Made by a program: the position numbers and the translations under genes. Of a DNA stretch of 64,000 nucleotides, positions 1 to 30,948 are shown piece by piece; the stretch's first letter is position 1; the number at the start of each line of letters is the position of its first letter. The notes below the pieces were generated by a model, which saw only the letters and a program-made list of their open reading frames with translations, had not been told where the DNA came from and searched no databases. Source of the stretch: Flavobacteriales bacterium (lineage in GTDB: Bacteria > Bacteroidota > Bacteroidia > JACJYZ01); assembly GCA_020435415.1 (NCBI GenBank), contig JAGQZQ010000004.1:6234-70233 (forward strand). Reading direction: 5' to 3'.

Positions 1-17
1 AAACCAACGGTCATTTA

Positions 18-1265
18 TTGATTGTGCATCAGATTGACAACATACGGCGAAAATTGACCAGGCCAGATTCTGTTGCAGGCCTGGATGTCAAGATTCTGGA
101 CGACGGAAAGATGCTGATAAGCGGGGTGGTGCTGTCGCGAAAGAAAGAATCCGTGACGCATGACAGGTCGTTCTCCGGCATTACATCCATCGAAGAACTC
201 AAACAACATGTATCACCCGGTTTGCCGGTGAGTATATGTCTTCATGGAAAGGGCATCATGCACAAGAAGGTTACGGCATTCGAGGGAGACTATGTTGATC
301 TGCTGCCCCAGATCTTACCCAACGCCAGACTAAAAGATCTGCTGGTGCAAATTCAACCCGGTGAAAGAACAGCACCATGTGTATCCGCCACACGGAAAGA
401 TCAGCTTGAAAAATGGCTGCACATATTTTCGGAGGCCGGATTGGATGTGGTGAATGTGACACTGGGGCCGTTGCTGATGGATCATGTACTTCCTTTGTTG
501 ACGGTGAAAGAGGAGGAGATGCACGTGGGTGATTTTCACTTATGGATCGGTAAGGAGGGATTGGAAAAGTTCAATGTCAATGGTACTTCTCCAACAGAGG
601 ATGTGGCTGTTGAGATTGATCAAAAGAGCTGGAAAGCGTCTGAGTTGATTGGGTTCTCCCAGGCTTTTGTCAGTCTGGCCGGTATTGATCCGGCACCGGC
701 ATCCGATGATGAGCTGATGAAGCGGGGGAAGGTGGAATATGAACAGAAGGTGCTGTTCAGGAAATCGGGATGGATGCTGTTAATTTTCTTCTTCACCATG
801 TTGCTCGCCAATTTTCTGATGTATGGTCATTATGAAAAAGAGAACCAGCGATTGGAGGAGGAAATATCCATCAACGGCAGAAAGGTAGATCAGGTCAATG
901 AAATGCAGGCCTTACTGGATGAGCAGGAACATTTCCTGTCAAACGCGGGATGGAATGCTTCCGCTCAGGCATCGTACTTTGTCAACCGGGTGGCATCTTC
1001 GGTTCCCGAGAAGGTTCAATTGACCATGTTGCATGTATATCCTCCCAGGAAAAGTGAGGTGGCTTCCGCTACCAAGGCGGATGTTCAGTTTGACGGACAA
1101 CACATGGTTATTTCAGGAGCAACCACGAACAGCCTTATTCTTAACGATTGGATCAAGGTTGTCAAATCCGTGGAGGGAATTACCGATGTGAAGATCACGG
1201 ATTACCATCAGAAGAGCAATGAAAGTATTGGTTACTTTGAACTGGAGGCAACGCTGGGCAAATGA
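18..1265 (+). CDS. GspL / PilM-PilN-fusion-like inner-membrane assembly protein. It is probably 5'-truncated by the window edge: the reading frame is open back to nt 3 and the TTG at 18 is only the first possible start.
   Basis: The N-terminal segment GLDVKILDDGKMLISGVVLSRKK resembles the actin-like fold of PilM/GspL cytoplasmic domains. A single central TM helix (GWMLLIFFFTMLLANFLMYG) is followed by a coiled-coil periplasmic region. It lies in an operon with pseudopilins and GspF. Confidence 0.45.
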   Translation: MIVHQIDNIRRKLTRPDSVAGLDVKILDDGKMLISGVVLSRKKESVTHDRSFSGITSIEELKQHVSPGLPVSICLHGKGIMHKKVTAFEGDYVDLLPQILPNARLKDLLVQIQPGERTAPCVSATRKDQLEKWLHIFSEAGLDVVNVTLGPLLMDHVLPLLTVKEEEMHVGDFHLWIGKEGLEKFNVNGTSPTEDVAVEIDQKSWKASELIGFSQAFVSLAGIDPAPASDDELMKRGKVEYEQKVLFRKSGWMLLIFFFTMLLANFLMYGHYEKENQRLEEEISINGRKVDQVNEMQALLDEQEHFLSNAGWNASAQASYFVNRVASSVPEKVQLTMLHVYPPRKSEVASATKADVQFDGQHMVISGATTNSLILNDWIKVVKSVEGITDVKITDYHQKSNESIGYFELEATLGK

Positions 1266-1792
1266 ACAGAAAAACCTCATATAAACGTAAGCTTCAACTT
1301 CTGTGGATAGGTGCTGCAGCATTTGCGGTTCTGGCATATTTCCTTGCCGTGCGCAATACCGTGAACCTGGCGTCTGAGGTAAGGGAAGCGGAACAAATGA
1401 TTGAGCAGGCAAGGAATGCACCCCGTAAACTGGAGGTGTTGGAAAGTCGCTTGTCCTGTTTGAATCAGCAGATGGGAAAATATGCTTCCGGTGTGAATCA
1501 GGATCAGATCCTGGCATCGGTGGCCACTTTTTGTGCAGACCATAACCTGATCCTGGCTTCATTCCCAGCGGGTACGGAAACAGTTCGTGGTGATCTGAAT
1601 ATGATCACTTATAAGGTGACTGTTCAGGGGAAGTTCAATGATTTAATGCAACTGGCTTATATGCTGGAAAAGGATGGCAGCAAAGGACATGTATCTTCTC
1701 TTCAGTTTCAGGTGGTGGAAGACGTGCGTTCCAAGAGAAGCTACCTGATGGCATCCATATATCTTCAAAATATTGTAAAACATGTATCGTAA
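1262..1792 (+). CDS. PilO/GspM-like bitopic membrane protein
   Basis: 176 aa. It has an N-terminal TM helix (LQLLWIGAAAFAVLAYFLAV) followed by a coiled coil. It overlaps the upstream gene by 4 nt, which suggests translational coupling. The call rests on position in the pilus/T2SS-like operon. Confidence 0.4.
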   Translation: MNRKTSYKRKLQLLWIGAAAFAVLAYFLAVRNTVNLASEVREAEQMIEQARNAPRKLEVLESRLSCLNQQMGKYASGVNQDQILASVATFCADHNLILASFPAGTETVRGDLNMITYKVTVQGKFNDLMQLAYMLEKDGSKGHVSSLQFQVVEDVRSKRSYLMASIYLQNIVKHVS

Positions 1793-2738
1793 CAAATTGC
1801 TTCTGCTTCTGATCCTGGTGCCGGGTATGTTCGTGATAAAAGCATGCAAGGATTTCTTTGAAGAGGACATCACCAATAAGCAGGTGAAGATCATTGCGCC
1901 TACCGATAAACTTAAATCCAAAAACCGGGAGAATCTCTTTTTATGGGAAGAGGTCAAAGGCGCACTGTCGTATCATTTGCAGGTTGTGCATCCCAGTTTT
2001 GACAGCATCGTTGAGTTTGCAGTGGATTCACTAATTCAGGCGGATCGAGTTACCCTTGTGCTGAACCAGGGACGGGAATATCAATGGAGACTGAGAGCAG
2101 AGAACGGTTCGTCATATACCCCCTATGTTTACAGAACGCTGACCATCGATTCTACGAACGATATAAGTACCCAAATTGTGAAGTTGCTTTCGCCTGATGA
2201 TAAGTATATTTCTGATACCACCACCCTGGAATTTTCCTGGCGTAGTATTGCTGGTGCCAATACATACACGATTGAGTTTGCAAAACCGGATTTCAGCAAA
2301 CCGCAGAATGTTCAGAACAGCTACAATACAACGGATACCACATTTGTATACACCTTCAAATCCGATGGCGCTCATTCATGGCGGGTTCTGGGAAGAAATG
2401 ATACTTATAACTCGGGCTATTCCGTGCGTACGTTAACGATTGATACTACGCCGCCGGTTGCTCCGACACTCACTTACCCGCCCAACAATGCGGTATTGGA
2501 TTCCTTTCCCGTTCAGTTGTCGTGGAGCCATGCGGCGGATGTGGCATTAGACTACCTCTCGGTTTACCACCCGGATGGCAATACATTGTTGCCCGGATAC
2601 CCCAAGGTATTGACACAGCCGAATTACGTTTTTAGTCATTCATCGGTTGATTCGGTTTATTACTGGCAGGTGCAGTCTGAAGATGCCTCAGGTCACCTGA
2701 GTAAAAGCAGCCTGAAAAGAATATTTACGGTCAAATGA
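1782..2738 (+). CDS. Lipoprotein built from three tandem beta-sandwich-like repeats of about 95 aa each
   Basis: It has a signal peptide plus a lipobox-like Cys (FVIKAC). Three internal repeats each end in RTLTID / RIFTVK and contain W..E / Y.W motifs that recall FN3 or Ig-like domains. Confidence 0.55.
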   Translation: MYRNKLLLLLILVPGMFVIKACKDFFEEDITNKQVKIIAPTDKLKSKNRENLFLWEEVKGALSYHLQVVHPSFDSIVEFAVDSLIQADRVTLVLNQGREYQWRLRAENGSSYTPYVYRTLTIDSTNDISTQIVKLLSPDDKYISDTTTLEFSWRSIAGANTYTIEFAKPDFSKPQNVQNSYNTTDTTFVYTFKSDGAHSWRVLGRNDTYNSGYSVRTLTIDTTPPVAPTLTYPPNNAVLDSFPVQLSWSHAADVALDYLSVYHPDGNTLLPGYPKVLTQPNYVFSHSSVDSVYYWQVQSEDASGHLSKSSLKRIFTVK

Positions 2739-3226
2739 AAAAGAAGACCAACGTCTATATACTTCTGGTAGCTGCCGCTGTGGTCTGGGGCCTGGTCATT
2801 TACCGCCTTGTCGACGGATGGGGTGGACAGGAAACATATGCCGTTGTTCCTGCTGTCATGAAGGAAGTGCCATGTGATCTCGAGAACAACAGTTTTGCAT
2901 TGCTGGAGTTACCATCGGATCCGTTTCTGGAACGTTCGGTCATCAGGAACAACGTGCGAACCTATCGGCCGGTCAGCAGCCAGTCTTCGGCTCCTGTCAA
3001 GCCCAAGGCAAAGCCTGAACCGAAACCGCCGTTGCGATGGCCTGATGTCAAGTTCAGTGGCGTTGTGAAAGGAGCAGGCAAGGAGGTAGCGATACTTTCG
3101 GTGGACAATAAGAATTTCCTTTTGGCGGAAGGTGAGGAAGCGGTTCAGGTGAAGGTGGTGAAGCTGTACTCCGATTCCGTGCAACTGAAATATGAAGGAG
3201 AAAAGAAGACCATTCTAAGAAAATAA
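2735..3226 (+). CDS. GspC/PilP-like protein (N-terminal TM anchor, C-terminal HR-like beta domain)
   Basis: It has an N-terminal TM helix and a Pro/Lys-rich linker. The C-terminus (FSGVVKGAGKEVAILSVDNKNFLLAEGEEAVQVKVVKLYSDSVQLKYEG) resembles the GspC HR / PilP domain. Confidence 0.4.
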   Translation: MKKKTNVYILLVAAAVVWGLVIYRLVDGWGGQETYAVVPAVMKEVPCDLENNSFALLELPSDPFLERSVIRNNVRTYRPVSSQSSAPVKPKAKPEPKPPLRWPDVKFSGVVKGAGKEVAILSVDNKNFLLAEGEEAVQVKVVKLYSDSVQLKYEGEKKTILRK

Positions 3227-3229
3227 TAT

Positions 3230-4093
3230 ATGATGATGAAATTTGTTTCGTCAGTTTCGTTTTGTAAGATCTCCCTGTTGAGCCTGGTTGTCACCAGTAT
3301 GGCATTGACAACCCGTGCACAATCGCCTAATTATACCAAGACAAACGGTGAGGTGGCGGTGATTGATAGCGGCTATCCAGCCAAAGCCAGCGTATATCTG
3401 TTGAAGAAGAAAAAGGTCAGGGCCAGGGAAAGCCGCACCTATGCATGGCACCGATCCTATGAGATTCATCGCACGGTTGGCGGTGTGGACGGACAGGTTC
3501 TCAATGGCTGGTATACACAATACCACAAAGATCATGACTTGAGGAAAAGAGGGAAGTACAGATTCGGTTTGAAGGTAGGGAAGTGGATGCAGTGGGATGA
3601 GAACGGACATGTTCGTCAGATTGTGAACTACCGGCAGGGAAAAGCCCATGGAGCCTTTCGTTATTACAATGAAAAAAATGAATTGCAGAAGAGCGGAAAA
3701 CATTGTGAAGGGAAGGTACATGGCCGGTTAAGAGAATATGATGGTGATTCGGCAAAGGTCTTCTATTACAAAAAAGGAAACCTCCGGGAATATCAGGCCC
3801 CGGGTGCAGTCAGGGTCTGGCGATCTTCCGGAGATGCGATCAAATCATGGACATCTCCAAAATCCGATAAAGAAAAAAGAACAAAAGTGGACAAGGAGAA
3901 AAGTCAGAAGAAAGATAGAGAGAAGGTGGATAAAGTGGATAGGGAGAATAAGAAGCGCAAAGAAGATGACGGGAAGAAAAAGAAATCGCCGCCTGAGAAT
4001 CTGAAGGATCAAAAGACGCAGGAGAAGGATAAGTCAACCGACAAGCAGAAGCCTAAGGAGAAAAAGACACCATCCGGGAAAAAGAAGGAGTGA
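3230..4093 (+). CDS. Secreted MORN-repeat (YwqK-like) protein with an extremely Lys/Glu-rich C-terminal tail
   Basis: It has a signal peptide. Repeated G.W..YH..G.L..KG.Y..G.K.G.W motifs point to MORN repeats. The C-terminal ~85 aa are almost entirely K/E/D/R and are encoded by a polypurine tract. Confidence 0.6.
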   Translation: MMMKFVSSVSFCKISLLSLVVTSMALTTRAQSPNYTKTNGEVAVIDSGYPAKASVYLLKKKKVRARESRTYAWHRSYEIHRTVGGVDGQVLNGWYTQYHKDHDLRKRGKYRFGLKVGKWMQWDENGHVRQIVNYRQGKAHGAFRYYNEKNELQKSGKHCEGKVHGRLREYDGDSAKVFYYKKGNLREYQAPGAVRVWRSSGDAIKSWTSPKSDKEKRTKVDKEKSQKKDREKVDKVDRENKKRKEDDGKKKKSPPENLKDQKTQEKDKSTDKQKPKEKKTPSGKKKE

Positions 4094-4103
4094 GGAGCGC
4101 CCT

Positions 4104-5348
4104 ATGCTAAAAGCGTCTTCCCTCATATATGCACTGGCTGTGGCACTTCTGATTGCAGCACTCTCATCATCCTTTATCCTTTTATCGTACCTGTTCAATG
4201 TGCAGACCCTCCGGATGGATGAACGTGCACGGGAATCCCGCAATACATTGTCGGGCCTTTACCTGATGTTGGGTGAGGATGCGCCCGGACAGCAGGCAAC
4301 AGAGGTGGATTTGTATGGTGATGGCAGCGACAACATTTCTGTCCGGCGTTATCCGTGGGGGGTGTTTGAGGTTGCAGTAGCGCAGACACTCACCAGGAAT
4401 GTTGCAGAACGTGCAGTCCTCATGGGAAGAAAGCCCGGACCGGATAGTGATTATGCGCTGTACCTGAGCGACCGGAACCGGGCCTTGTCGGTTTGCGGGA
4501 AAACGTTGGTCAGGGGGAAAGCATACCTTCCCGAGGCCATGGTGAAACGAGCCTATATTGAAGGAAAGAGCTTCGATGGTCAACGGTTGATTGATGGGGT
4601 AACTTCCAAAAGTGATAAGGCCGTTAAGCCACCGGATACAGATGCGCTAGGTGAACTGGACCGTCAGATGACCGAGCGATTTTCGACGGAAGATAGCCTT
4701 TACATTTTTGCTGATAATCAACCTATATTAAACATGCATCAGTCATTCACGGCACCTCCCCGTGTCATTACAGGAACAAGCATCGTGGTAGGTGATGTGG
4801 ATTTGCTGGGGCACATCGTCATACAGGCAGACCGTAAGATATCGGTGTTAAGATCCGCACATTTGAAGCAGGTGTTGTTGATTGCGCCCATCATTGAAAT
4901 AGAATCCGGATTCAACGGTAGCTTACAGGCATTGGCAACCGAAGATATCATTGTGGGCGAAGATTGTCAGCTGGCATACCCGAGCGCACTGGTGCTGAGG
5001 TCACAAAAAACCGGAAAAGAATCATCTGAAGTCCGTATGGAAAAAAATGCGTCCGTGGGCGGTGTGATTTTTGTTATGCCCCGGGAACGCAACAGCCGGA
5101 CGTTGGTTGTTTTGGGAGAGGAAACCACTTTGACGGGACAGGTTTATGTGCAGGGAAATGCACAGGTTCAGGGTACGATTCATGGAAATCTCACCGTGGA
5201 TGAACTTATCCTGAAAACCCCTTCCTCAGTTTATCAGAACCATTTGCTGGATGCGGTAATTGACCGGGAATCACTTTCGGATTTTTATGTTGGCGCCGCA
5301 CTGTGGCCGGATGCTGCAGAAAAAAAATGGGTGCAATGGCTGGAATAA
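4104..5348 (+). CDS. Hypothetical pilus/T2SS-associated protein with an N-terminal pilin-like hydrophobic helix (possibly a GspK-like minor pseudopilin)
   Basis: The N-terminus is SLIYALAVALLIAALSSSFILLSYLF and the rest of the 414 aa is predicted periplasmic. The call rests on its position directly upstream of the pseudopilin genes. Confidence 0.35.
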   Translation: MLKASSLIYALAVALLIAALSSSFILLSYLFNVQTLRMDERARESRNTLSGLYLMLGEDAPGQQATEVDLYGDGSDNISVRRYPWGVFEVAVAQTLTRNVAERAVLMGRKPGPDSDYALYLSDRNRALSVCGKTLVRGKAYLPEAMVKRAYIEGKSFDGQRLIDGVTSKSDKAVKPPDTDALGELDRQMTERFSTEDSLYIFADNQPILNMHQSFTAPPRVITGTSIVVGDVDLLGHIVIQADRKISVLRSAHLKQVLLIAPIIEIESGFNGSLQALATEDIIVGEDCQLAYPSALVLRSQKTGKESSEVRMEKNASVGGVIFVMPRERNSRTLVVLGEETTLTGQVYVQGNAQVQGTIHGNLTVDELILKTPSSVYQNHLLDAVIDRESLSDFYVGAALWPDAAEKKWVQWLE

Positions 5349-5689
5349 GAGTTCATAAATTGAGTGCATCCACATTGCTGGAGACATTGATTGCTATGGT
5401 GATCGTAATGGGAACGTTCGGAGTGGGTATGATGATTTATACAAACGTGGTGCAGCGGGGTCAGAATGCCTCTGTTGTAAAAGCCCATGTGATGGTCAAG
5501 GATGCTGCTGCGGATGCATTGATGCACAAACGTTTCCTGGATGAGTCATGGAATGCGGACGGCTTGATGATCCGGAAAACGATCCGGGAAAGTCGCTGGA
5601 CAGGTGTGAAAGTTCTCGAGGTGAGTGCACTGGATGAAAGCCAGAAATCATTGGCAACTTATAAGGTATTGATCCATGCGAACCGCTGA
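5336..5689 (+). CDS. Pseudopilin (prepilin-type N-terminal domain protein)
   Basis: The N-terminus is KLSA|STLLETLIAMVIVMG: a hydrophobic helix with Glu at +5, but Ala rather than Gly at -1. ATG candidates lie at 5327 and 5336. It overlaps the upstream gene. Confidence 0.55.
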   Translation: MAGIRVHKLSASTLLETLIAMVIVMGTFGVGMMIYTNVVQRGQNASVVKAHVMVKDAAADALMHKRFLDESWNADGLMIRKTIRESRWTGVKVLEVSALDESQKSLATYKVLIHANR

Positions 5690-6188
5690 CAGGCTGCAGT
5701 CCTTTACCCTGATCGAACTGGTGGTGGTGATGATCATCACCGGCATTGTGGTTGCCACGGCGGCTACGGCACTTCGCATTACAGGCGAACGATTAGCCCA
5801 TTTGAAAGACAGCCGGGAGAAATGGCTGGAGGTATACCGGCTTGAAGGTGCCGTGCAGGGAGATGCGGACCGGTCCCTGGAGGTGCTGAGCGAGGTGGAT
5901 GGAGTCAGGTTAAAGCGAATGGTTGGTCCTGATATCGTATATCATATTCTAGCCAACGGGGTGGTTCGTGAAACCGGTCAGGTTACGGATACCTTTTATG
6001 TTGATATTTCAGAAAGAGAATCATACTATAATGGCAACACCATAACAACGAATGTATCGCCTATTGATGAGTGGAAATGGGAAGCGCAAATCGGCGAGAC
6101 GCCGGTATCATTTCGTTTTTATAAGATATATGCGGCAGACGAGAAAATGCGGCACGAAGCGATTCTGAATCACACACCCGGCAGATAA
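5676..6188 (+). CDS. Type IV pilin / T2SS pseudopilin
   Basis: It has a classic prepilin N-terminal motif, RLQS|FTLIELVVVMIITGIV, with Phe at +1 and Glu at +5; Ser at -1 is atypical. Confidence 0.65.
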   Translation: MRTADRLQSFTLIELVVVMIITGIVVATAATALRITGERLAHLKDSREKWLEVYRLEGAVQGDADRSLEVLSEVDGVRLKRMVGPDIVYHILANGVVRETGQVTDTFYVDISERESYYNGNTITTNVSPIDEWKWEAQIGETPVSFRFYKIYAADEKMRHEAILNHTPGR

Positions 6189-6197
6189 GCATGATCC

Positions 6198-7355
6198 ATG
6201 GCCATTGACCTGAAACAATACAAGGCATCAACTGTTAAGTCTGATAAGCGCACAACCGGAACAGCCGGATCGAAAGGCTTTATGGATTTCCTTAATAGGG
6301 ACATACAGCTCTTTGGAAGCGCGTTACCGGATAAGGATAAGGAAGCGTTTTATCATGAACTCGAGATTCTGATGGGTGCGGGTGTGGACATCAAATCGTG
6401 TTTGGATCATATTGAAAAAGAACAGAAGAAGAAAAAGGATCAGGTGCTGTTTGCCGATATCCGTGGTCGTGTGTTGAACGGGGAGACCCTTTCCGAAGCG
6501 ATCCGGAAGACAGGGAAGTTTTCACCCTATGAATATTACAGCTTGCAAATCGGTGAGGAATCAGGGAAGTTGCTGGAAGTGTTCCGCGAACTGGCGGGAT
6601 ATTTCAATGCAAGGATTCGGCAACGCAGACAGGTGATCAACGCTTTGTCATATCCCGCCATTGTCATGACGGTCGCCTTCGGTGCCATCTATTTTATGAT
6701 GCAGTTTATGGTACCCATGTTTGCGGATGTCTTTAAACGGTTCGGCGGTGATCTTCCACCCATAACCAAAATGATCGTTGACCTTTCCGCTTTTGTCCGT
6801 GCGTGGGGTGGCTGGCTGATGGTCGGCCTCGTGGGTTTGCTTATTGCAGGTTATTCACAACGAAAGAAGGATGGTTTTCGGAAAGTGCTATCGATGGTGG
6901 TGCTGCGTTTTCCTGTGGCGGGTCTGTTGGTTAAGAAAATATATGCGGCCAGGTTTTGCAGATCCATGGCCTTGCTGATGAGTGCCAATGTTCCGATGCT
7001 TCAGGCATTGGAGTTGGTGCGCAACATGATCGGTTATTATCCTATGGAAAAGAGCCTGGATCAAATCGGGAAGGAAGTGATGGAGGGAGGAACATTGCAT
7101 GAAGGCCTGGGTGCACATGACATTTTCCCTTCCAGATTAACAGCACTTGTTAAAGTAGCCGAGGAAGTGAATCAACTGGATGTCATATTCGAACAACTCG
7201 CGAAACAGTATGGGGAAGAGGTGGAATACCAGACGGGACTGCTTGGTAGTTTTGTGGAACCGCTGATGATCATCTTCCTCGGCCTTGTTGTGGGTGTTAT
7301 TCTCATTGCCATGTACCTGCCATTGTTCCAGCTCAGCACCGGCGTGATGCAATAG
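6198..7355 (+). CDS. gspF: Type II secretion system / type IV pilus platform protein GspF/PilC family
   Basis: 385 aa. It shows two GspF-type repeats and three TM segments (LSYPAIVMTVAFGAIYFMMQFMVPMFADVF, and a C-terminal EPLMIIFLGLVVGVILIAMYLPLFQL). This is a typical T2SS_F architecture. Confidence 0.75.
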   Translation: MAIDLKQYKASTVKSDKRTTGTAGSKGFMDFLNRDIQLFGSALPDKDKEAFYHELEILMGAGVDIKSCLDHIEKEQKKKKDQVLFADIRGRVLNGETLSEAIRKTGKFSPYEYYSLQIGEESGKLLEVFRELAGYFNARIRQRRQVINALSYPAIVMTVAFGAIYFMMQFMVPMFADVFKRFGGDLPPITKMIVDLSAFVRAWGGWLMVGLVGLLIAGYSQRKKDGFRKVLSMVVLRFPVAGLLVKKIYAARFCRSMALLMSANVPMLQALELVRNMIGYYPMEKSLDQIGKEVMEGGTLHEGLGAHDIFPSRLTALVKVAEEVNQLDVIFEQLAKQYGEEVEYQTGLLGSFVEPLMIIFLGLVVGVILIAMYLPLFQLSTGVMQ

Positions 7356-7824: not shown

Positions 7825-9849
7825 ATGAAGATGATCCGTAAAAAACAAAGGCTGACCGTAGTTGCTGTATTTATTGCACTGGTTGGTTGGCAGATGGTAC
7901 ACGCCCAGGATACGGTGGGTGTTGTGATTAGTATAACCGATACAACCCCTGACCCGTCTGCAATTCTGGATGTGATGTCAACAACAAAAGGAATGCTTAT
8001 TCCTCGTATGACAACCACGGAACGCGGCGCAGTTTCATCTCCTGCTGATGGTTTGATGGTTTATGATACGGATGAAAGTGCGGTGTATTTTTATAACGGT
8101 ACAACAACTGAATGGGCAAAGGTAGCAGGTGAATTATGGGAGCAGAGTGGAGGTGATATTTACTATACGGGAGGTAATTTCGGTTTGGGTACGGAGACCC
8201 CTGCCTATCGTTTAAGTATTGCGGGCAATTCGTCAATTGCGGACCGCACGATTGCTGTTAATGATACACCAATGGTCTATCTGGCAGCTCAGGGCAGTTC
8301 TCAATTGATAGGTTCGATCGCGTTTGGAAACGGTTTGAGAAGTCTGACTTCCGGATCAGGTAAGTATAACACGAGCGTTGGTATAGGTGCATTGTTTTCT
8401 ACCACCAGCGGTACCCAGAATACAGCTCTGGGTGCAAACAGCCTCCGCTCCAATACGGGCGGAAGTCAGAATACCGGTATCGGATACCAGACGCTTTACA
8501 CAAACACGACAGGTACCAATAACACCGGAATCGGCTATAATGCATTACAATCAAATACTACCGGAAGTTACAATACCGCGGTAGGTATCACTTCGTTAAA
8601 CTCAAATACCACAGGTAACGGCAATACCAGTTTGGGTTCTTTTTCATTGCGGTACAATACCACCGGAACATCTAATACGGGAATCGGTTCCAGTGCATTG
8701 TATAATAATACTACCGGAATTAATAATACCGCTGTGGGCGAAGAGGCCCTGAAAGCCAATACCACCGGCGGACAAAATACAGCGATCGGTGTGGATGCAT
8801 TGATCAACAATACCACCGGTTCCTATAACGTAGCGATCGGATCCTTCACGCTTAATGGAAATACTACTGGTAGTTTGAATGTGGGTATCGGTCCGCAGGC
8901 ATTGTATACCAATAGCACAGGAGTATCTAACTTTGCTAACGGAACCCAGGCATTGTATAGTAACACCACCGGTAACTATAATACGGCGGAAGGTTCATAT
9001 GTGTTATACACCAATACCACCGGCAGCAACAACACCGGCAACGGTTATCAATCGCTCAAAAACAGTACCACCGCGGGAAGTAATACAGGCATCGGTTTTC
9101 AGGCCGGACACGATATCACCACCGGTTCATACAATACCATCCTGGGGAATTTCCCCAGCACCTCTTCCAGCATCACCACCGGCTCGAACAATATCCTGAT
9201 CGGGAATGATGTACGCAACGGCCTTTCGGTGACCAGTTCGAACCAGCTGAACATCGGCAATCTGATCTATGGTACTGGTCTGGGTTCGGCCGGCAGTGTG
9301 CATAACATTCCGAGGGTGGGTATCAATACAGCGACACCGGACACGACTTTTTCCGTGAATGGAAGAGCCTCCATGCAGGGAGGCGGATCCTGGCTCACCT
9401 TCTCAGACAGAAGAGTGAAAAAAGATACAGCCTCATTCACAGACGGCATTGAAACGATCCGCCAGGTGCATCCCATGAAATACAAATACCGGGGCATCTA
9501 TGCGGACACCACCACGGAGTTTGTAGGTGTGATTGCTCAGGATATGCAGTCTGTGGCACCATACACGGTCAAATCACACAAGATCGAAGTGCGTGGCCGG
9601 GATGCCAACATGTTCCAGGAAAAGACCTACATCCGTACGGACAACATATATGTTCGTACGGATACATTGGTGGGGCCCAATGATAGCATCATTTTGCAAC
9701 CGGTACACAGACAGGAGCAGGTATATGAGGTGGATGCATTAAGTTATGATCAGAGTGCATTATTCTATGTTATGATCAATGCACTGAAACAGTTGGATGC
9801 GGAGAATGCAGAGTTGAGAAGCAGGATAGAAGCATTGGAGAACGAATAA
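7825..9849 (+). CDS. Tail-fibre-like surface protein with 17-aa NTxxG repeats and a C-terminal peptidase S74 (endosialidase-chaperone) intramolecular chaperone domain
   Basis: It has a signal peptide and about 16 tandem copies of NTxxGxxALxxNTTGxx. The C-terminus (SDRRVKKD...VHPMKYKYRG...FVGVIAQDMQSVAPYTV... coiled coil ENAELRSRIEALENE) matches the S74 autoproteolytic chaperone domain. Confidence 0.7.
   Translation: MKMIRKKQRLTVVAVFIALVGWQMVHAQDTVGVVISITDTTPDPSAILDVMSTTKGMLIPRMTTTERGAVSSPADGLMVYDTDESAVYFYNGTTTEWAKVAGELWEQSGGDIYYTGGNFGLGTETPAYRLSIAGNSSIADRTIAVNDTPMVYLAAQGSSQLIGSIAFGNGLRSLTSGSGKYNTSVGIGALFSTTSGTQNTALGANSLRSNTGGSQNTGIGYQTLYTNTTGTNNTGIGYNALQSNTTGSYNTAVGITSLNSNTTGNGNTSLGSFSLRYNTTGTSNTGIGSSALYNNTTGINNTAVGEEALKANTTGGQNTAIGVDALINNTTGSYNVAIGSFTLNGNTTGSLNVGIGPQALYTNSTGVSNFANGTQALYSNTTGNYNTAEGSYVLYTNTTGSNNTGNGYQSLKNSTTAGSNTGIGFQAGHDITTGSYNTILGNFPSTSSSITTGSNNILIGNDVRNGLSVTSSNQLNIGNLIYGTGLGSAGSVHNIPRVGINTATPDTTFSVNGRASMQGGGSWLTFSDRRVKKDTASFTDGIETIRQVHPMKYKYRGIYADTTTEFVGVIAQDMQSVAPYTVKSHKIEVRGRDANMFQEKTYIRTDNIYVRTDTLVGPNDSIILQPVHRQEQVYEVDALSYDQSALFYVMINALKQLDAENAELRSRIEALENE
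8371..9190 (+). repeat. Intragenic tandem repeat with a 51-nt (17-codon) period, about 16 copies
   Basis: The repeat units NTGIGYQTLYTNTTGTN / NTGIGYNALQSNTTGSY etc. are seen directly in the translation of 7825..9849. Confidence 0.8.
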
Positions 9850-9882: not shown

Positions 9883-12800
9883 ATGATGTTCCTTACCACC
9901 ATATACCAACGTTTCCTTATTTGTCTGGGATGTTTCTTCCTTCTGACAGGACCCGTGCAGGCACAGCTCAGTAATAATGGGGCGCGCATCAAATTGTATC
10001 ATGGCGTAAAGCTTCAGGTACATGGTGATGTTGTGAACAAGAAAAGCGGAGAGTTTGATCTCCGTGGTACACTTCGCCTGAAAGGAGATTGGACAAATAA
10101 TGCAGATAATCCTGGCTTTAGCGATCAAAGCGGAAATGGTGCCGTAGAATTTTTTGGTGGATACAAGCAGTATGTTACTGGAGTTACCCCGACGGAGTTT
10201 TATAAACTTCGTCTGGGAAAATCCGATAATGCCGTGGAAGCAGATACAACAATCACTATCATGGATAGTTTGTTGCTTTCCGGTGGTGTGCTGATCACTT
10301 CTGCTTCCAATTACCTGATCATGAATGATGACGCCGGTGCCACCGGAGGTAATGGCAGCAGTTTCGTGCAGGGGCCGATGAAAAAGATCGGCGACGAAGC
10401 ATTTACTTTTCCACTGGGAAGAAGAGATAGCTATCAACCGTTGGTCATCACCGCACCCGCTTCCGCCACCGATGCATACGTGGCAGAATATTTTGATTAT
10501 GAACAGGATCTCGGTTTTGAAAAGGATGATTCATTAAACTACCTAAGTACTTGTGAATTCTGGAATCTGAACCGGACATCCGGAAGTTCGGATGTGACCA
10601 TCACCCTCGGATGGAACACGAATAGTTGTGACATTTCCAAATCCTCTGATGTCAGAATCGCCTATTGGCAAGGAGATTCCATATGGGCCAACCTGGGCAT
10701 CGGATCAACTTCGGGAGATGCTGACAACGGTACGATCCAGTCACCCGCTGCAGTGACCGCGTTTGGCTCTTTCACTCTCGCCAGTGTGATCCCCACCACC
10801 AATCTGCAAAGTGCTTTTTGTGATATGGCGGGCCTCACACTCTCGGATACACTCCTTGCTGATACGGTCAGCGGTGTGACCAGTTATGAGTTCTACATTT
10901 TTGATAGCACAGGTTTTGCCAGGTATGTTGTTCGCGATGATGTGTCATTGCCGCTTTCACTGGTCAGCGGATTGAAGTACGGAAGTACATACCAGGTACA
11001 GGTCCGGGTTCTGGTAGGAGAAAAGCTGGGTGCATATGGTGATACCTGTGATATTATTTTTGATGAATTCGCTCCTACTTCATTAACGTCAACATGGTGT
11101 GATGTGGATGATGTCAGCATTGCCGATACCCTCCAGGCCCAGGTTGTGCCAGGCGCGAAAGGCTATGAGTTTCTTGTTGAAGATACAGCTACCGCAGCTA
11201 CTTACAGCAAAACCTATGTGCGTAACAGCAGGGATGGTAAGTTGCCCTTGATTGCTATGGACAGCCTGGAGTATGGTATCACCTATCGTGTGGCGGTTCG
11301 TTATTTTGTGGGTGAGGATACCATTACATGGGGAGATACCTGTCACATTGAACTCATTGATCATCCCCTCACCAAACTGCAAAGTGAATGGTGCCCCGCA
11401 AATGATCTGACACTGGCAGACACCGTGGAAGCAGAGATTGTGCCCGGTGCACTCCACTACCAGTTTTATTTTGAAGATACCGCCACCGGCGCCACATTTA
11501 CTGCCGAGTATACCAATGATACATACCGCCTCGCACTTGACGATGTGGATGGTCTGGAATATGGTGTCACATACCTGGTCACGGCAAAAAGTATTGTAGG
11601 GTTGGACACGTCCGCATACGGCGATACCTGCTACATCGGACTCGATATACATCCCATTACCAAACTTCAGGTGCAGTACTGTGACAGCTCCGGTATCAGT
11701 ATTGGTGATACGCTGCTGGCAGATATCGTAGCTGGCGCAGAGAAATACCAGTTCCATCTGTTCAAAGGTGGGGAGATCGATACCGTATACACCCGGGGCA
11801 ATACCGATGGAAAATTCCCGCTGTCCGATATTCATGCACTTTTATTCGATTCAACTTACAGCATTGCTGTCAGGACCATTGTCGGCACGGATACTTCTGC
11901 ATATGGAGATACATGTATGATAACCCTTCTTGATAGTGTGCCGGTAACAATACTTGACGAGAACGCATGCTATAATTACCAACTGGATTTTGACGATGAA
12001 GTTTATGCCGAACTGGTGCCTGGCGCCTCGGTTTATCAATTCAAAGTGGAGAATGCGGATTCAGCATATAGCGAGACCTATACAAGGGAAAATGCCGACG
12101 GTCTCCTCGACCTCAATGAACTGACGGATCTTGAATACAACGTGCTTTACGATGTCATTGTCCGGGCCGCCATCAATAACGATACCGCACAGTGGGGGGA
12201 TACCTGCCGGATCAAACTTCTGCCCAGGACCCAGCTCATCACGGATGACTGCGATAAGCTCATGAATCTCCAGGATAGCCTGGTGGCGGATACTGTTCCA
12301 CTTGGTACGGGGTATGAGTTTACTTTTATAGATGATACCACCAATTTCCGCTTGTCATATGTCATAGATGCAACACACGGGATTCTGGTGCTGGATAGTG
12401 TTGAAGGCCTCAGGTACAATAAGACCTACCAGGTGCTGGTGCGTACCATCGTGGAAAGTGACACAGCCAACTACGGTGACACCTGCTCCCTGATGCTGAT
12501 CGAGCAACCACTGACCAAATTGATCACGGAAGACTGCGATGTGACAGACTTTGTGATGAGCGATACCCTTGAGGCAGACCCCGTGGTCGGTGCCACTTCT
12601 TATGTATTCTTTTTTGAGGATACCAACTCGGTCGACACCACCGGCTATATCGGAAAAGTGGTGGTGGACAGCACGGATGCGGTGTTGCCCTTGCTGCAGG
12701 CCACGGGACTGGAATACGGTGCCACCTATTATGTGCGTGTCGCACCCATCGTAGGTAGTTATGAAGGCGAGTATGGCGATACCTGTCTGGTTACTTTTAT

Positions 12801-15800
12801 CGAACACCCGCTGACAAATATCAACGAGACATGGTGCGACGTGGAGGACATTACCCTGGCGGATACCCTGCAAGCCGAGGAAGTGGATGGTGCACATACC
12901 TATCAGTTCTTTGTCTGGGATACCGCTGCTGCAGGTACCTACACGGAAACTTTTTACCGGTACAGCTATGACGGACTTCTTCCTTTGCACGATCTCGACA
13001 GTGCCCGTTATGGAATAACCTATGGCGTGAAAGTGGCTACCGTGGTGGGAGCAGATACCTCCGCTTATGGCGATACCTGTTATTTCGGCCTGACCGATCT
13101 TCCCGTTACACAACTTACCGATTACTGGTGCGACTCCATCGGCGTATCCATGGCCGATACCCTGGAGGCGGAAGCCATCGGTGGCGCAAAGACTTACATT
13201 TTCTTCTTCGAGGATACGGTGACGGCCTCCGAATTTATGGTCTCCGATACCATTTTTGATGATACCCCCCGTATACCTTTGTTGGATGTACCCGGGCTGA
13301 AATATGCCACCACCTATGCCGTGAGCGTAAAGGCCGTGATCGGGGGAGATACAACCGCCTTCGGGGATACCTGTCTCGTAAGTATGTTCGATAGCATTCC
13401 GGTGACCAAGCTTCATGACAGTTTCTGTGATTCACTCAATATCTCGCGTGATGCCATCGTGTATTCGGATCTTGTTGTGGGTGCCGATCAATACCTGTTC
13501 ATGCTGGTGGATACCGCAGCGGATGATACGCTTTCTTATATAAGACCCTATGGAGATGGTAAACTGATCCTGGCCGATGTGGAAGGCCTTGCCAATCCTG
13601 TAACCTATGCTGTCAGGGTACGCGTGGTGATGGATGAAGATACGGCCCAGTTCGGTGGAACATGCTACCTTCGAACGGATACGGCCACGCAGTTGGCAGC
13701 ATTGTACTGCGATACCATGAATGCAGGTATTACAGATACCCTTTATGCAGACCTTCTTACCGGTGCCACTGCTTACGGATTTATCCTTGCGGATACCGCG
13801 TCCAGCTTCACCACCACCTGGTGGCGTGACGATACCGATGGCATGCTGCCGCTGGGTGAAGTGGATAGCCTTGAATACGGGACCGTGTACGAGGTTCGGG
13901 TGAGAGCCGTCCTGGGTGGTGATACCACATACTATGGCAGTACCTGTACAATATCTATCGAATCGCATCCCGTTACGAAATTATCAACCACATGGTGCGA
14001 TGCCACGGATGTCGAGATCGGAGATACGCTGCAGGTGGATACCATAGCAAAAGCAAGCGCCTACCTGTTTGCCATCGAGGATACGGTGACCGGGCAGGAG
14101 TTCAAAGCATTCCATATGCGTGATTCTTCCGATGGCAAGCTACCGCTTGTGGATGTGGAGGGATTGACTTACGGTCGTACCTACCTGGTCAGTGTGCAGT
14201 CGATTGTTGGTGAAGAAATCAGTGCCTGGGGCGACACCTGTGAGATAACGCTGATCGAACATCCCACAACCCAACTGAATATTTTTTGGTGCGATAGCAA
14301 TGATATTAGTCTGTCTGATACGTTGGCGGCTGATATTGTACCGGGCGCTTCGATCTATGAGTTCGTGATCGAGGATACGGTGACCGGTGCTACTTACACC
14401 CAAACGCATTTCCGCAACGATGCCGACGGATTGCTCATTCTGGCGGATGTGGATAGCATGACCTATGGCCATACGTACCGTGTGTTTATCCGGACATATG
14501 CCGGTGACGATACCTCCGCATACGGCGATACCTGCCATATCGGTATCATCGACCATCCGACAACACAATTGCAGGAGCAATGGTGCGATAGTTCAGGTGT
14601 TGCGCTGAATGATACGGTAACCGCTGATACGGTCGGAGCAGCCTGGCGCTATGAGTTCGCCATCATGGATTCCGCCACGGCCTTTGCCACCACCTATATG
14701 AATGATGACGGCAATCCATTGCTGTTCCTCGGAGAGGTGGACAGTCTCTTTTATAAAAAGACCTACCTCGTGGCGGTGCGCACTTATGTGGCCGGCGATA
14801 CTTCCGCCTGGGGTGATACATGTAAAATACGGACACCGGATGAGGTGCCGTCCACCACACTTACATCCACCGATTGCAGTAAACGCGACCTTTCACTGGA
14901 TAATGTGCTCTCGGTGGATGAGATCGCCGGGGCCACCCGCTACCTCTTCGAGCTCGAGGACTCGGCCACGGCGGAATTGTTCACTTACATCGACAGTGTC
15001 GGAGGCGGCCTCGTACTGGGTGACATCGAAGACCTCGGTTATGGCAACGCTTATGATGTGTATGTGAAGGTGGTCTCAGGTGCGGATACGTCCGATTGGG
15101 GTGCCGCATGCACCATCGCCATGCTGGCCGATATTCCGGTCACTTCGCTGGATGCAGAGGGTTGCTACGCCGTGAACCTGGATACCACCGATGCGGTCTA
15201 TGCCGAGCCGGTGACCGGTGCCACGGAATACGATTTTCATATTTACAATACAGACCTGGCCTTTGATGAACTGTATACGGATACCACGGGTGCAGGTATC
15301 CTGCCGCTGGATAGCGTTTCAGGCTGGTCTTACGGTTATTCTTACAATGTGGAAGTGCGTTCCCTTGTTGCCGGTGAGCTGTCTTCATACGGCGGAACAT
15401 GCCCCATTACGCTTCTGTCGGATACCACATGGCATTTGTTTACCTGGGCCTCTTCCGCCAACGTGAGTATTGTGGATGGTGACATTACAAAGTCGGGTAC
15501 GGATGGCGACTGGACGGATGCATACGCAATTTCTGAAGACTCCATCGACAGCGGTGGCGACGGCTATGCGGAATTCTCCATGACCACCGAAACGGATACA
15601 TATATTTTCGGTCTTTCACAATCCGGTGCACCTTACGATAGCCTGGATCATGCCATCCTGATCGACAGTGGTGAGGTGTTTGTGATGGAGGCCGGTATAA
15701 ACCTGGGCCTGATGGCCACAGCGGAAGCCGGCGATGTGCTGAGCATCGAACGCATAGGCAGTGAAGTGGTATACAGAAACAACGGAGAGGCATTTTACAA

Positions 15801-18800
15801 TTCTTATCCTAACACCGACCTGGTGCTTCACGTGCAAATTCATCTGTTCAATGATGGCGCTGAAGTGGGGGCGATCGGTGGGTATGAAACACCGGGTCCG
15901 GCATTCCCTCCATGCAACCTGGATATGAACTGGTCTTCTTCGCGGTTCTTCAACGGCTATGGAACCGGCCAGGGCAATGTGATCGCAGAATCGAAAAGTA
16001 TCAGCGATTATATGGGAAGACCCATTCAGGGGCTGGTTAAGAATATGACTGAGAATGTGGTACTGGCTGCCGAACCGATGTATGATGACCTGGGGCGTCG
16101 AGTGGGACAAACACTGCCGGCTCCGATCAACAGCAGCCATCTGTGCTACAAGCAAAAGTTCGTGGTAAACCCGGACGGAGGTAAGTACAATACGAATGAC
16201 TTCGACAATTCCGATGATCATATTGCCCAGGCGGGCACTTATGGTACGGTGAACAACCCGAGGGCCGTTCGGGGCAGTGCTTTTGATATTGGTACACTGG
16301 GGTGGTACTACAGCGATAACAACACCCTGGAGTCCCACGTGGATGTGAGCAGCTATCCGTATTCCCGGGTGGAATATGATGACAACAACCCGGGCCAGGT
16401 CAAACGGGTCTCGGCAGTAGGCGATGAGTTGCGAATGGGTAAGGGACGTGAAGGTGTGGCCTTCTCCATGCCCGCTTCCGGTGAATTGCACTATGTCTTC
16501 GGTTATGCCAACGGGTGGACCGTAGATTACTTCGATACCCACGGCACGCCGGTGGCCGGGAATTTCCAGGCAACCTACAAGGTGATGAAGCATATCTCCG
16601 TGGACCCGAACGGCATCGAAACGGTGAGCTTCACCGATTATGACGGCAAAATGGTGGCTGCCTGTCGCAGCGGCAGTGTGGATGGCGCCAACGTACGGAC
16701 ACAGAAAGTACAGGAGTCGTTCCAGAAAGGAAAGCGTTGCATCGACATTCACCTGCCGGAAGGTTGCGAGTCGTCGCTGGAGCTGACTTCCGGCCAGGAT
16801 CTTATCTACAACATCCTTGACCTGGAAACCGATGAGCTCGTGAAGGTCAACGGATCCGTGAACTTCAGCGGCGGAAAACCATACCTCGACCCCGGCTTCT
16901 ACCGCATCATTCATGTAACGGATTACAACGACTACAGCGGTGCGCTTCCGGTGACCTACAACCTGAACTACCACGACTTCACCGCTTACTATTATGACCG
17001 GGCCGGTCGTCTGTCCTCCATCATTCCGCCTATTGGCATCGATGATACTTATGACCCTAAATCCGTTGTGGTAAGCAAGCGGAAGAAAAGCGAAAGTTTT
17101 AATGCCGGCAGTGGTATGTGGGGAGTCAGCAACAAACAGGCTGCCGGTTTTACACTGGATCTTGCCACTGCCGTTGATCCGTCCGGAAGTTCGTTTGCCA
17201 ACCTGGTCGTGACCCTGTCCAAATCCAACGTGGTCATATCCGATCCGCAAAACCCCGGACTCACTTCCGGCAGGTTAGCCTTCGGCACGACCACGGTGAA
17301 TACAGTCCCTTCGGATGTGACCGGTTTCGGGGTTATAGATGAAGATGATCCGCTGGCCCAGGGACCTGATCCGGGATGTGATTGCGGTCCGGGTGCCTGG
17401 TGCTTCACCGGTAGTGAGGCGGCGGCCATCAGTGATGCGGAAAACAAATGTTCCCGCATGGGGGCATGGGGCAAAGAAGCCATTGCCATTGACCGTGGAA
17501 GTGGTGAGTGGTGCCTGGCCTGCGGTGCTGACAAACCCATACCGGAAGGGCCCAAGTATGAGATCGAGGTGGCGCTGTACTGCAATGATGCACAGGGTGC
17601 ACTTATCCGGGATGACCTCGTCTTTTACGCCTATCACCATGAAGGTAAAACACCCGAATGGACCTTCCGGAGTGATCCCAATAGCCTCGGTACCAACACC
17701 GCTGCCGTTGAATGGGCTGTCATCGATCAGGACCTGATGGAAACCACCACCCAGGTTTATGTAAAAGTGGTTTCTATGAAGGAGTTTGATTATACCATCG
17801 GTGGAAAACTTGAAACCTTCGACTACGATCTGCTGGACGGTATGAAACTGTCTCTGAATGCCTCGGTGCATAACATCCCCGGCCTGCCGCAACATGCCCA
17901 GGCCACGCATTTTGAGTACAATTCCCTGGGCCAGCAATTGTCTTCCGTGACACCCGATGAAGGGAAAACGGAATTCGTGTACCGGAGGGACGGACAGATC
18001 CGTTTCTCACAGGATGCCCGTCAGGCTTCTGAAGATAAGTTTACCTACTTCAGCTACGATCGTTTCGGCCGGTTGGTGGAGTCAGGTGAATATGAATCTC
18101 CTTCATCCGGTGCGGGTGTCTACTTCCAGAACCATCAGGGGGAACACAGTGCACCCGGAGGTTGCAGTCCGTGTACCGCCGCAACGGATGCCTCCGTGCT
18201 GGAAGTCCTTGACGGACTGAACGACAGCTACTGTTCCGAAGTGATCACCACAACTTTTGATGTGGCGGACGATGCCGGCATCGCATCTGTGAATACGGAA
18301 CTCGGAAGCACATACAGCCAACGCTACCTTCTGGGCAAGGTCTCCAAAACAGAAAAGGAAGGCCTGTCCACCACATGGTACAGCTATGATGAACAGGGCC
18401 GTGTGGAATGGACAGCCCAACAGGTGGAAGGCATGACAACTTCCGGTACCGGTCACAAATTGCTGACCACCAACTATACGTACAACCGCTCCGGAACGGT
18501 GAGCGAGGTGGAATACCAGCAGGAGAGCTCAGGTACGGACAACGAACGTTTCGTGCACCTCTATGAATACGATAAGGACAACCGCCTCAGCGAAGTGGCA
18601 TCCCGGCGCTATGACCAATATGGCGCCAGCCTGGGTGACCATGCGGAAGCGACCTATGCCTATTATGTGCACGGTCCGCTCAAACGCACCGAACTGGGCG
18701 GCGATGTCCAGGGCATCGACTATACCTACAACATCAACGGCTGGCTGAAAGCCATCAACCATCCTGATCTGGATGCCGGAAAAGACCCCGGGCGTGATGG

Positions 18801-28037: not shown

Positions 28038-28041
28038 GTAT

Positions 28042-28072
28042 GTTTAAGGTTCAAGGTCTAAGGTTTAAAGTT
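28042..28072. repeat. Copy of the intergenic TTTAAGGTTCAAGG motif element (gtttaaggttcaaggtctaaggtttaaagtt)
   Basis: It is about 90 % identical to the motif at 42361-42383, which has an inverted tandem copy at 42405-42437. Confidence 0.6.
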
Positions 28073-28742: not shown

Positions 28743-28810
28743 TGGTCGTGTGTTGTACATCGTACCCATTGAGTGAAGGGGTATGCCAGTGCCAAAGTTT
28801 TTTGAATCCG

Positions 28811-29737: not shown

Positions 29738-29913
29738 TCCATAAGCACCTTCAAATCCCGATTAAAGATAACCATAGTAATTTATTTCGGAATGGTTTAA
29801 TACAAAGGCTGGGAGATTGTATGGATTCAGCGGGTAGACGCATGACTCATTCATCCAGCATCTATTGATGGTGCGACTTAGATCATCCTCGAGAATAGCG
29901 GGTGATATTGTAT

Positions 29914-30806: not shown

Positions 30807-30948
30807 ATCATGTTTTTAGGATGACGACTAGATGATATCTGATATACAAGAATGACAGTCAAGTGATACCCATCATTCAAAGATATTTATTTATCTGCAT
30901 GTTTTTACTATGATTGCTATTTAAGGATTGGGACGCACGCATAACTAA

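Follow-up and report, generated by a model that had tools for sequence, protein, structure and literature searches.

A probable distal part of a Bacteroidota-specific type IV filament operon in a Flavobacteriales genome

We analysed a 64-kb stretch of DNA, in the following called the window, from a metagenome-assembled genome of a Flavobacteriales bacterium, and describe the nine genes at its left end, designated p1 to p9 (the locus tags run from KDD36_01475 for p1 to KDD36_01500 for p6). Positions 1-7355 are probably, with an estimated probability of about 0.6, the distal part of a Bacteroidota-specific type IV filament operon of the kind termed 'Cytophaga-type T2SS', with an output like that of a type II secretion system (T2SS). 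Homologues of all nine proteins were found at the same relative positions in independent loci by iterated hidden Markov model searches, and therefore the cluster is not a product of chance. Gene order, gene content and the Bacteroidota host identify it as a member of the Cytophaga-type group.

Bacteroidota are discussed mostly for their type IX secretion system, and a second secretin-based machine is widespread in this phylum, with one genetic study devoted to it. The system was described by Wang et al. 2017 (PMC5553014) and flagged by Denise et al. 2019 (PMC6668835), and it is under-characterised. In comparison with the published literature that was surveyed, two points taken from predicted structures are new, namely the probable identity of p1 and the ComZ/PilX type of the putative capping pilin. 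Two further new points were deduced from sequences: Ala at position -1 of the prepilin cleavage site is family-wide and goes together with a short prepilin peptidase, and an Fn3 lipoprotein and a MORN protein are conserved components. The resulting parts list (a GspL-type fusion, M- and C-type partners, a three-pilin priming complex with a ComZ/PilX-like solenoid cap, a short, presumably Ala-specific peptidase and two conserved accessory proteins) leads to testable hypotheses on the construction of the machine and on its exported or bound partners.

Organization of the operon

An earlier reading of the window, the original prediction, had proposed nine tightly packed genes on one strand that form an assembly operon related to T2SSs and type IV pili. 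Both proposals were corroborated. All nine open reading frames (ORFs) were recovered on the plus strand, where they fill positions 18-7355 almost without gaps (Table 1), and the assignment to an assembly operon agreed with the synteny in independent loci and with matches to T2SSF, N_methyl and PilN. At the junctions from p1 to p9, the genes either overlap by 4-14 nt or are separated by 3-10 nt, and an AT-rich spacer of 469 nt follows gspF (p9). The start codon of p1 is TTG at 18 or GTG at 24, and the NCBI annotation has a 403-aa form.

Table 1. Genes of the operon at the left end of the window, with the basis of each assignment
Feature	Position	Strand	Assignment	Basis
secretin, 3' end	1..21	+	GspD/PilQ-like secretin, last codons (KPTVIY and TGA)	matches conserved secretin C-terminus
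p1	18..1265	+	predicted PilM-PilN fusion, GspL-like architecture	AlphaFold2 model, Pfam PilN in relatives
p2	1262..1792	+	candidate bitopic PilO/GspM-like partner of p1	weak profile matches, position
p3	1782..2738	+	lipoprotein with three tandem Fn3 domains	family profile against PDB, lipobox
p4	2735..3226	+	putative N-terminally anchored GspC/PilP-like protein, HR-type C-terminal domain	sub-threshold T2SSC match, position
p5	3230..4093	+	exported MORN_2-repeat protein, Lys-rich low-complexity tail	MORN_2 matches of orthologues
p6	4104..5348	+	predicted large capping minor pilin, class III-like N-terminus K-A/S, no Glu5	predicted structure
p7	5303..5689, likelier start ATG 5336	+	minor pilin, ~117 aa, KLSA/STLLE	family motif, Glu5; homologues begin at position equivalent to ATG 5336
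p8	5676..6188	+	minor pilin, 170 aa, RLQS/FTLIE	Pfam N_methyl 2e-5
p9	6198..7355	+	inner-membrane platform protein GspF/PilC; its gene ends the operon	Pfam T2SSF 1.5e-47

The operon extends beyond the left edge of the window, which contains its downstream two-thirds. Translation of nucleotides 1-21 in frame 1 yields KPTVIY followed by a stop codon, which is identical to the end of the secretin C-terminus FIKPTVIY that directly precedes the p1 homologues in 15 related loci; a secretin gene thus ends at nucleotide 21. Judged from these last six codons and from the secretins of syntenic loci, an outer-membrane secretin belongs to the system.

A scan of metagenomes with a GspF profile yielded 80 further loci beside a contig of Sporocytophaga myxococcoides (Cytophagaceae; locus L006) that is syntenic with the window gene for gene. 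The products of this contig have, in order, 161 aa, 478 aa (GspE), 641 aa (secretin), 409, 189, 297, 166, 270 (MORN_2), 422, 118, 154 and 380 aa (GspF). When synteny was compared across the family, the full gene order of the window was present in 11 independent loci including that of S. myxococcoides. The syntenic operons start with a short peptidase of the A24 family, GspE and the secretin; the secretin of S. myxococcoides matches the Pfam families Secretin (8e-37) and STN (1e-12), and the ATPase of the syntenic loci matches T2SSE (6.9e-125).

Two modules can be distinguished, module A with the order (major pilin-peptidase-)E-D-p1-p2-p3-p4 and module B with the order p5-p6-p7-p8-F. Three loci (L013, L055 and L072) have the modules in reverse order, with the genes of a 139-aa pilin and the peptidase, then E, D, p1 and p2 (and p3 and p4), behind module B. 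In such permuted loci the gene of the major pilin (139-140 aa) lies beside the peptidase gene, for example at 11277-11696 in L013 and 5349-5771 in L072. An isolated gspF would have spoken against the original prediction, but p8 adjoins gspF in essentially every locus that covers this region. The terminal position of gspF had been read correctly but considered peculiar, and it is in fact a family trait because the synteny in the 11 loci and the published cluster orders, such as that of Phep_1100-1112, agree. The same is true for the other features that looked odd in the window: Ala or Ser at -1 and the presence of a MORN protein are the norm in this family.

The inner-membrane platform

The product of p9 is the platform protein expected of a machine of the type IV filament superfamily: it is polytopic, of the GspF/PilC type, and contains two T2SSF domains. 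It matched the GspF model TIGR02120 with 6.5e-78 and 262.7 bits, which is under the equivalog cut-off of 424 bits, and it scored far below the cut-offs of the PilC equivalog models. A search with p9 retrieved 2109 homologues at E<=1e-20, and all named ones among the best 120 are from Bacteroidota (Cytophagaceae, Sporocytophaga, Bacteroidia).

For p1, an AlphaFold2 model with a predicted local distance difference test (pLDDT) score of 91.9 was obtained. It contains an actin-like N-terminal domain (residues 1-221), an 80-residue helix with transmembrane (TM) and coiled-coil parts, and a ferredoxin-like C-terminal domain, and the nearest folds of the domains are PilM and PilN. A comparison of the p1 profile with the PDB by sequence gave no match, whereas Pfam PilN was matched by 54 of 71 members of the p1 family. 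Because of this domain layout and the PilN matches, p1 is predicted to be a PilM-PilN fusion, that is, to have the GspL architecture with a cytoplasmic actin-like domain, a TM segment and a periplasmic ferredoxin-like domain in one chain, as had been proposed for the first gene of the operon. The family is large; an exhaustive search found 1985 relatives, which corresponds to ~2000 representatives at 50% identity.

The next two membrane components, p2 and p4, had been proposed to be PilO/GspM-like and GspC/PilP-like, respectively, and both proposals were supported by profile matches below the cut-offs together with the gene positions. The profile of the p2 family matched PilO of M. xanthus (3jc8_O) with an E-value of 0.028 over residues 38-160, and p2 homologues always follow p1. 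The evidence that p2 is PilO/GspM-like is therefore weak but coherent. In the p4 family, 4 of 34 members matched T2SSC, with a best E-value of 1.3e-4; p4 itself lacks a lipobox and carries a TM segment at its N-terminus. These features lend weak support to a GspC/PilP-like role. Together with p1 and p9, the candidate p2 and the putative p4 would make up a complete inner-membrane platform.

The minor pilins

A structure with a pLDDT of 89.2 and a predicted template modelling score of 0.87 was obtained for p6. In the model, an alpha1 helix of 50 residues is followed by a sheet of four strands, a beta-solenoid (approximately residues 220-387) and a final strand, and the solenoid resembles the beta-helices of ice-binding proteins, adhesins and tapirins in a fold comparison. 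In the p6 family, a hydrophobic stretch comes after the N-terminal [KR]-A-[SGA], and residue +5 is never Glu. Pilins with a beta-solenoid have been described as filament caps, namely ComZ of Thermus thermophilus (PDB 6QVI, PMC6561018) and a cyanobacterial PilX (preprint 10.64898/2026.02.12.705559). The p6 model has in common with them the pilin alpha1 helix and sheet, the ice-binding-protein-like solenoid before the last strand, the lack of Glu5, and a gene encoded together with those of minor pilins. Because the architecture is that of these caps, p6 is predicted to be a capping minor pilin, functionally of the GspK/PilX class and structurally of the solenoid type. Sequence identity to ComZ and PilX is ~8-11%, p6 has 414 aa instead of 518-554 aa, and ComZ and PilX serve retractile systems for DNA uptake or motility. 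The earlier designation of p6 as a GspK-like candidate was thus right in that it appears to be a capping pilin without Glu5, but a ComZ/PilX-type solenoid takes the place of the GspK domain.

The two small pilin-like proteins, p7 and p8, had been taken for pseudopilins, and this view was substantiated. Their families have the N-terminal motifs K-A-S-T-L-x-E and K-A-F-T-L-x-E, respectively, with an invariant Glu5, and the N_methyl match of p8 is above the Pfam cut-off. Both are small minor pilins with Glu5 and have the class III signal peptide and the hydrophobic alpha1 of pilins of the type IV filament superfamily, except that residue -1 is Ala or Ser and not Gly. With p6, they form a three-member minor-pilin set.

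The prepilin cleavage site and the peptidase

In the original prediction, Ala and Ser at -1 of p7 and p8 were regarded as unusual. The motifs were read correctly, and the cleavage register is set by Glu5. It is further backed by the family profiles, which align the residue after Ala or Ser in p7 and p8 with residue 1 of mature pilins in the PDB, and the Phe position of the p8 profile coincides with residue 1 of mature PilE and PilA chains. Compared with other pilins these residues are unusual, but Ala is the consensus of this family. Among the p7 sequences of related loci, Ala, Ser and Gly were found at -1 in 52, 5 and 4 of 61 cases, and the respective numbers were 57, 3 and 6 for p8 (n=66) and 6, 1 and 0 for the major pilin (n=7), whose motif across related loci is K-A-[FY]-T-L-T-E. 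Ala is hence present at -1 in ~85% of the pilins of the family, with Ser and Gly as minor variants. Since Ala at -1 is the family rule, p7 with Ala and p8 with Ser are ordinary members. Pilin finders that demand Gly at -1 would miss most pilins of Bacteroidota.

The prepilin peptidase encoded in the related loci has ~160-177 aa (for example L006 7-492, L013 11735-12253 and L025 7-531). It contains the conserved motifs QD and GxGD, has no N-terminal methyltransferase domain, and matches Pfam Peptidase_A24 weakly (7.6e-4, below the cut-off). This short peptidase occurs together with Ala at -1 across all pilins of the family. Short prepilin peptidases that lack the methyltransferase domain are also known in other systems, that is, FlaK/PibD of archaea and TadV/CpaA of Tad systems, and the archaeal PibD-type enzymes accept Ala, Ser and Gly at -1, as the enzyme of this family would have to do. 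The peptidase of the related loci is like these enzymes in having two Asp motifs and no N-terminal cytoplasmic domain. Unlike in archaeal-type systems, the substrate motif K-A-[FS]-T-L-x-E looks otherwise bacterial. From the sequences, we infer that the short peptidase is either relaxed in its specificity or prefers Ala, and the pilins of the family may lack N-methylation.

The lineage-specific exported proteins

The description of p3 as a lipoprotein with three domains was confirmed. The profile of the p3 family, which comprises 40 ORFs in related loci, matched titin Fn3 arrays in the PDB in five stretches (E 1.5e-13), and p3 contains three Fn3 domains. The lipobox Cys hardly varies and stands at the head of the conserved motif C-x-[DE]-[IF]-[IF]-E (window 1845-1870, residues 22-30), with an acidic residue at +3 in 20 of 24 and Glu at +6 in 22 of 24 sequences. 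We take this acidic motif to resemble the export signal that directs lipoproteins of Bacteroidota to the cell surface.

The p5 protein alone matches Pfam MORN_2 below the threshold (0.0095), whereas 40 of 42 members of its family match it, with a best E-value of 5.7e-11. The family profile also matches SET7/9 chains (1h3i, 1mt6 and 1n6c; E 0.0016) in the N-terminal ~75 residues, which contain their MORN repeats. The protein can therefore be assigned, by profile similarity, as a tandem MORN_2-repeat protein. The conserved core consists of a signal peptide with a conserved Ala-Gln at its end, a beta-rich segment and the repeats (Y-W-Y...GG-Y-S-G-K-L-L-x-G...G-L-K-x-G-x-W-K-x-W). Such an end fits the 'Q-rule' of Bacteroidetes for substrates of signal peptidase I. 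The earlier description as a secreted MORN-repeat protein agrees with these sequence features, but the tail is not almost pure in K, E, D and R: these residues account for 62% of the last 85 residues. In homologues the tail is variable, Lys-rich and of low complexity, has a length of ~25 to 130 aa (~25 in orthologues of 155 aa), and often carries the motif F/W-x-K-L-x-x-F-K-K-K.

The p5 gene lies directly downstream of p4 in 35 of 44 loci and directly upstream of p6 in 47 of 53. It is a conserved, though non-universal, part of module B. In two loci, L039 and L052, the genes of the major pilin and the peptidase are located between p4 and p6, where the MORN gene usually is, and no MORN gene was found nearby. 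The most likely role of p5 would be that of a periplasmic structural part associated with the secretin or the envelope, and p3 would most likely be an envelope-spanning or secretin-associated structural part of the machine. The lineage-specific parts p3, p5 and p6 are real, conserved and unstudied.

Comparison with known systems

Wang et al. 2017 (PMC5553014) described a putative T2SS of Cytophaga hutchinsonii, encoded by CHU_3191-3202, which corresponds to Fjoh_0611-0622 and to Phep_1100-1112. Mutants in T2S-D, T2S-F and T2S-G of C. hutchinsonii are impaired in the use of cellulose and retain motility (PMC5553014). We matched the window to these clusters by gene count and gene order as given in the published table. 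In Pedobacter, Phep_1100-1112 has the order G-O-E-D, eight genes, F, and eight genes likewise lie between the secretin end and gspF in the window. When read on the opposite strand, the C. hutchinsonii cluster has the order CHU_3202, 3201, 3200, F (3199), G (3198), O (3197), E (3196), D (3195), 3194...3191. Read accordingly, the C. hutchinsonii and Flavobacterium johnsoniae (Fjoh) clusters have the order p6-p7-p8-F-G-O-E-D-p1-p2-p3-p4, which is the permuted order found in L013, L055 and L072. The labels C, L and M in that study were based on HHpred matches without structures, and its 'C' (CHU_3194) is, by position, p1, which is PilM-PilN/GspL-type in our model; the proteins that we recognise as Fn3 lipoprotein, MORN protein and beta-solenoid pilin appear there as hypothetical proteins or simply 'minor pseudopilins'. 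In a phylogenetic study, the Bacteroidetes 'T2SS' branches with type IVa pili (T4aP) and was considered a possibly independently derived secretion system (Denise et al. 2019, PMC6668835).

The cluster resembles canonical T2SSs in having GspF, a GspL-type fusion, a large cap pilin that lacks Glu5 beside small minor pilins, a secretin, and a single ATPase with no retraction ATPase in the cluster. A small candidate M-type partner and a putative C-type protein with a TM anchor would be further common features. In contrast to canonical systems, gspF is last (the order is C-D-E-F-G-H-I-J-K-L-M-O in E. coli K-12, locus L089), the cap pilin has a beta-solenoid where GspK has its own domain, there are no more than three minor pilins, a short peptidase goes with Ala at -1, and an Fn3 lipoprotein and a MORN protein come as additional components. 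From the features of a canonical T2SS, the GspL architecture was thus found, whereas a GspF equivalog, a GspK-type cap and a GspG-type major pilin were not. With T4aP systems (PilMNOPQ, PilC, PilB/T) the cluster shares the nearest folds of p1, which are PilM and PilN, and, with weak support, the PilO-like nature of p2. It differs from them in that PilM and PilN are fused and the protein in the PilP position is TM-anchored instead of a lipoprotein. Separate PilM and PilN, a lipoprotein PilP and PilT, which characterize T4aP, are all lacking in the cluster. A search for a second, PilT-like ATPase of the T2SSE family found none in the window or in 10-kb flanks of the related loci, each of which contained one match, and PilT may be encoded elsewhere in the genome.

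Proposed mechanism and alternative explanations

We propose that the short A24 peptidase would cleave the prepilins after Ala (or Ser or Gly) at -1, and that a complex of p6, p7 and p8 would then prime assembly on a platform of GspF, p1 and p2, in which p1 pairs with p2. GspE would dock on p1 via the cytoplasmic domain of the latter and power assembly, and the 139-aa major pilin would polymerise beneath the p6-p7-p8 cap to a short pseudopilus, with p4 coupling platform and pseudopilus to the secretin. The pseudopilus might push folded periplasmic proteins out or, alternatively, expose the p6 solenoid. A T2SS-like protein export or surface exposure appears to be the most likely output because of the cellulose defect of the C. 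hutchinsonii D, F and G mutants, the L/M/C-like platform and the lack of PilT in the clusters. We infer the choice of secretion over a fibre from these three points.

Several observations weigh against this proposal. The matches of p2 to Pfam PilO (0.035) and NCBIfam GspM (0.0038) and that of p4 to T2SSC (0.0015, residues 83-160) are below the cut-offs, and hhalign comparisons of the two family profiles with single E. coli sequences were non-significant, for p2 with GspM and for p4 with GspC, although p4 aligned on a region that we take to be the HR domain. The p4 family profile found no match in the PDB. The rest of the 64-kb window gave no match to profiles of the major pilin, the peptidase, the ATPase and the secretin, so that GspE, the secretin body, the peptidase and the major pilin of this genome lie outside it. 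The roles of p3 and p5 were deduced from conserved position alone, and p5 is missing beside p6 in 6 of 53 loci. The role in secretion goes back to a single genetic study, which was made in a different species. In related loci, the major pilin matches N_methyl and, above the cut-off, ComP_DUS (3e-8), and it does not belong to the GspG family of T2SSs; a pilin of the ComP_DUS type and a p6 that resembles competence or adhesion tips would suit a true pilus equally well.

It is accordingly possible, though clearly less probable than secretion, that the same machine builds a true extracellular type IV pilus with the p6 solenoid at its tip, as an adhesin for polysaccharides or surfaces or as a DNA receptor. 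Apart from the major pilin, the architecture that p6 shares with the DNA-binding tip pilin ComZ of Thermus and the likeness of its solenoid to the beta-helices of adhesins and other binding proteins would fit such a pilus, the marker phylogenies group the system with T4aP (PMC6668835), and, speculatively, the Lys-rich tail of a periplasmic p5 could bind DNA. On the other hand, no PilT-like second ATPase was found in the window or in the 10-kb flanks of the related loci, and the fused L-type protein and the TM-anchored C-type protein form a T2SS-like platform. Furthermore, F. johnsoniae is described as not naturally competent (PMC7965970), and the C. hutchinsonii mutants are motile with a phenotype of nutrient use or secretion (PMC5553014). 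Competent Riemerella is reported to be devoid of pilus genes (PMC8459023), and a link of the operon to the natural competence of this genus was dropped for this reason.

Two further explanations are very unlikely. If only the recognisable Gsp and Pil genes formed the machine, p3, p5 and p6 would be unrelated passengers inserted between them. The three proteins match no curated family of T2SSs or type IV pili, and the absence of p5 beside p6 in some loci and its highly variable tail would agree with passengers; but the three genes overlap or abut their neighbours, they keep their exact positions (for p5 and its neighbours in the fractions given above, for p6 in 64 loci) although GspF identity across the loci is only ~45-57%, and p6 has a pilin N-terminus and a pilin fold. 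The cluster might also be decaying or silent and without current function, a state known from the cryptic gsp operon of E. coli K-12, and we consider this equally improbable. A pattern scan with a tool whose scope does not include Bacteroidota promoters revealed no excess of sigma-70-type promoters over shuffled sequences, and the same scan called no terminator downstream of gspF. Against a remnant, each of the nine ORFs is intact and has its full length in comparison with the homologues, the genes are tightly coupled, and conserved motifs are retained, including Glu5, the lipobox Cys and the invariant residues of GspF.

As a tentative extension of the Cytophaga-type assignment, the system may represent a separate class of type IV filaments that arose from T4aP on a path of its own, apart from the proteobacterial T2SS, with p3, p5 and the solenoid cap as integral parts and an Ala-specific peptidase that lacks the methyltransferase domain. 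A secretin-like complex with extra periplasmic rings and extracellular density has been imaged in F. johnsoniae (PMC8455137). If the system is a separate class, p3 and/or p5 could explain these rings and this density, and the giant proteins that recur downstream of gspF could be cargo.

Neighbouring genes in the window

Three large genes and a small ORF follow gspF on the plus strand. The first (7825-9849) encodes a 674-aa protein with a signal peptide, long repeats rich in Asn, Thr and Gly, and a Peptidase_S74 domain (endosialidase intramolecular chaperone, 6e-10), and it thus seems to be phage tail-fibre-like. A homologue with 49% identity is encoded downstream of gspF in L031, and a fragment is present in L014. 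A 3726-aa ORF follows (9883-21063) with about 20 tandem repeats of ~95 aa ('...GDTC...'), behind which come a YD/RHS-like region and a distinct C-terminus; no Pfam match was obtained for it at 1e-3. The small ORF behind it (21114-21833) could encode an immunity protein, and the layout of the giant and the small ORF looks like that of a polymorphic toxin.

A further giant gene (22428-27494) encodes an exported protein of 1688 aa with a signal-like N-terminus that contains an RR pair and with a C-terminal YD repeat. Homologues of its ~380-aa N-terminal domain are encoded at most 10 kb from gspF in ~8-10 of 46 loci. They start at 16661 in L014, 11823 in L019, 12870 in L021, 16906 in L022, 9177 in L033 and 6109 in L081, and one is on the minus strand in L059 (2021-1311). 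L014 repeats the order of the window, that is, a fibre-like protein, a giant and a relative of the 1688-aa protein. Scans with Pfam and NCBIfam were uninformative for the giant proteins, and their association with the operon could reflect cargo of the machine or mere synteny within the lineage.

The next region (27507-34191) contains genes for an OmpH/Skp-like protein, an FkbM methyltransferase, a GT4 glycosyltransferase, a polysaccharide deacetylase and a GNAT acetyltransferase, a surface-polysaccharide cluster apparently unrelated to the operon. The GC skew was positive in nearly every 2-kb bin, and the cumulative skew climbed steadily over the 64 kb, which is consistent with a location on one replichore and mostly co-oriented genes.

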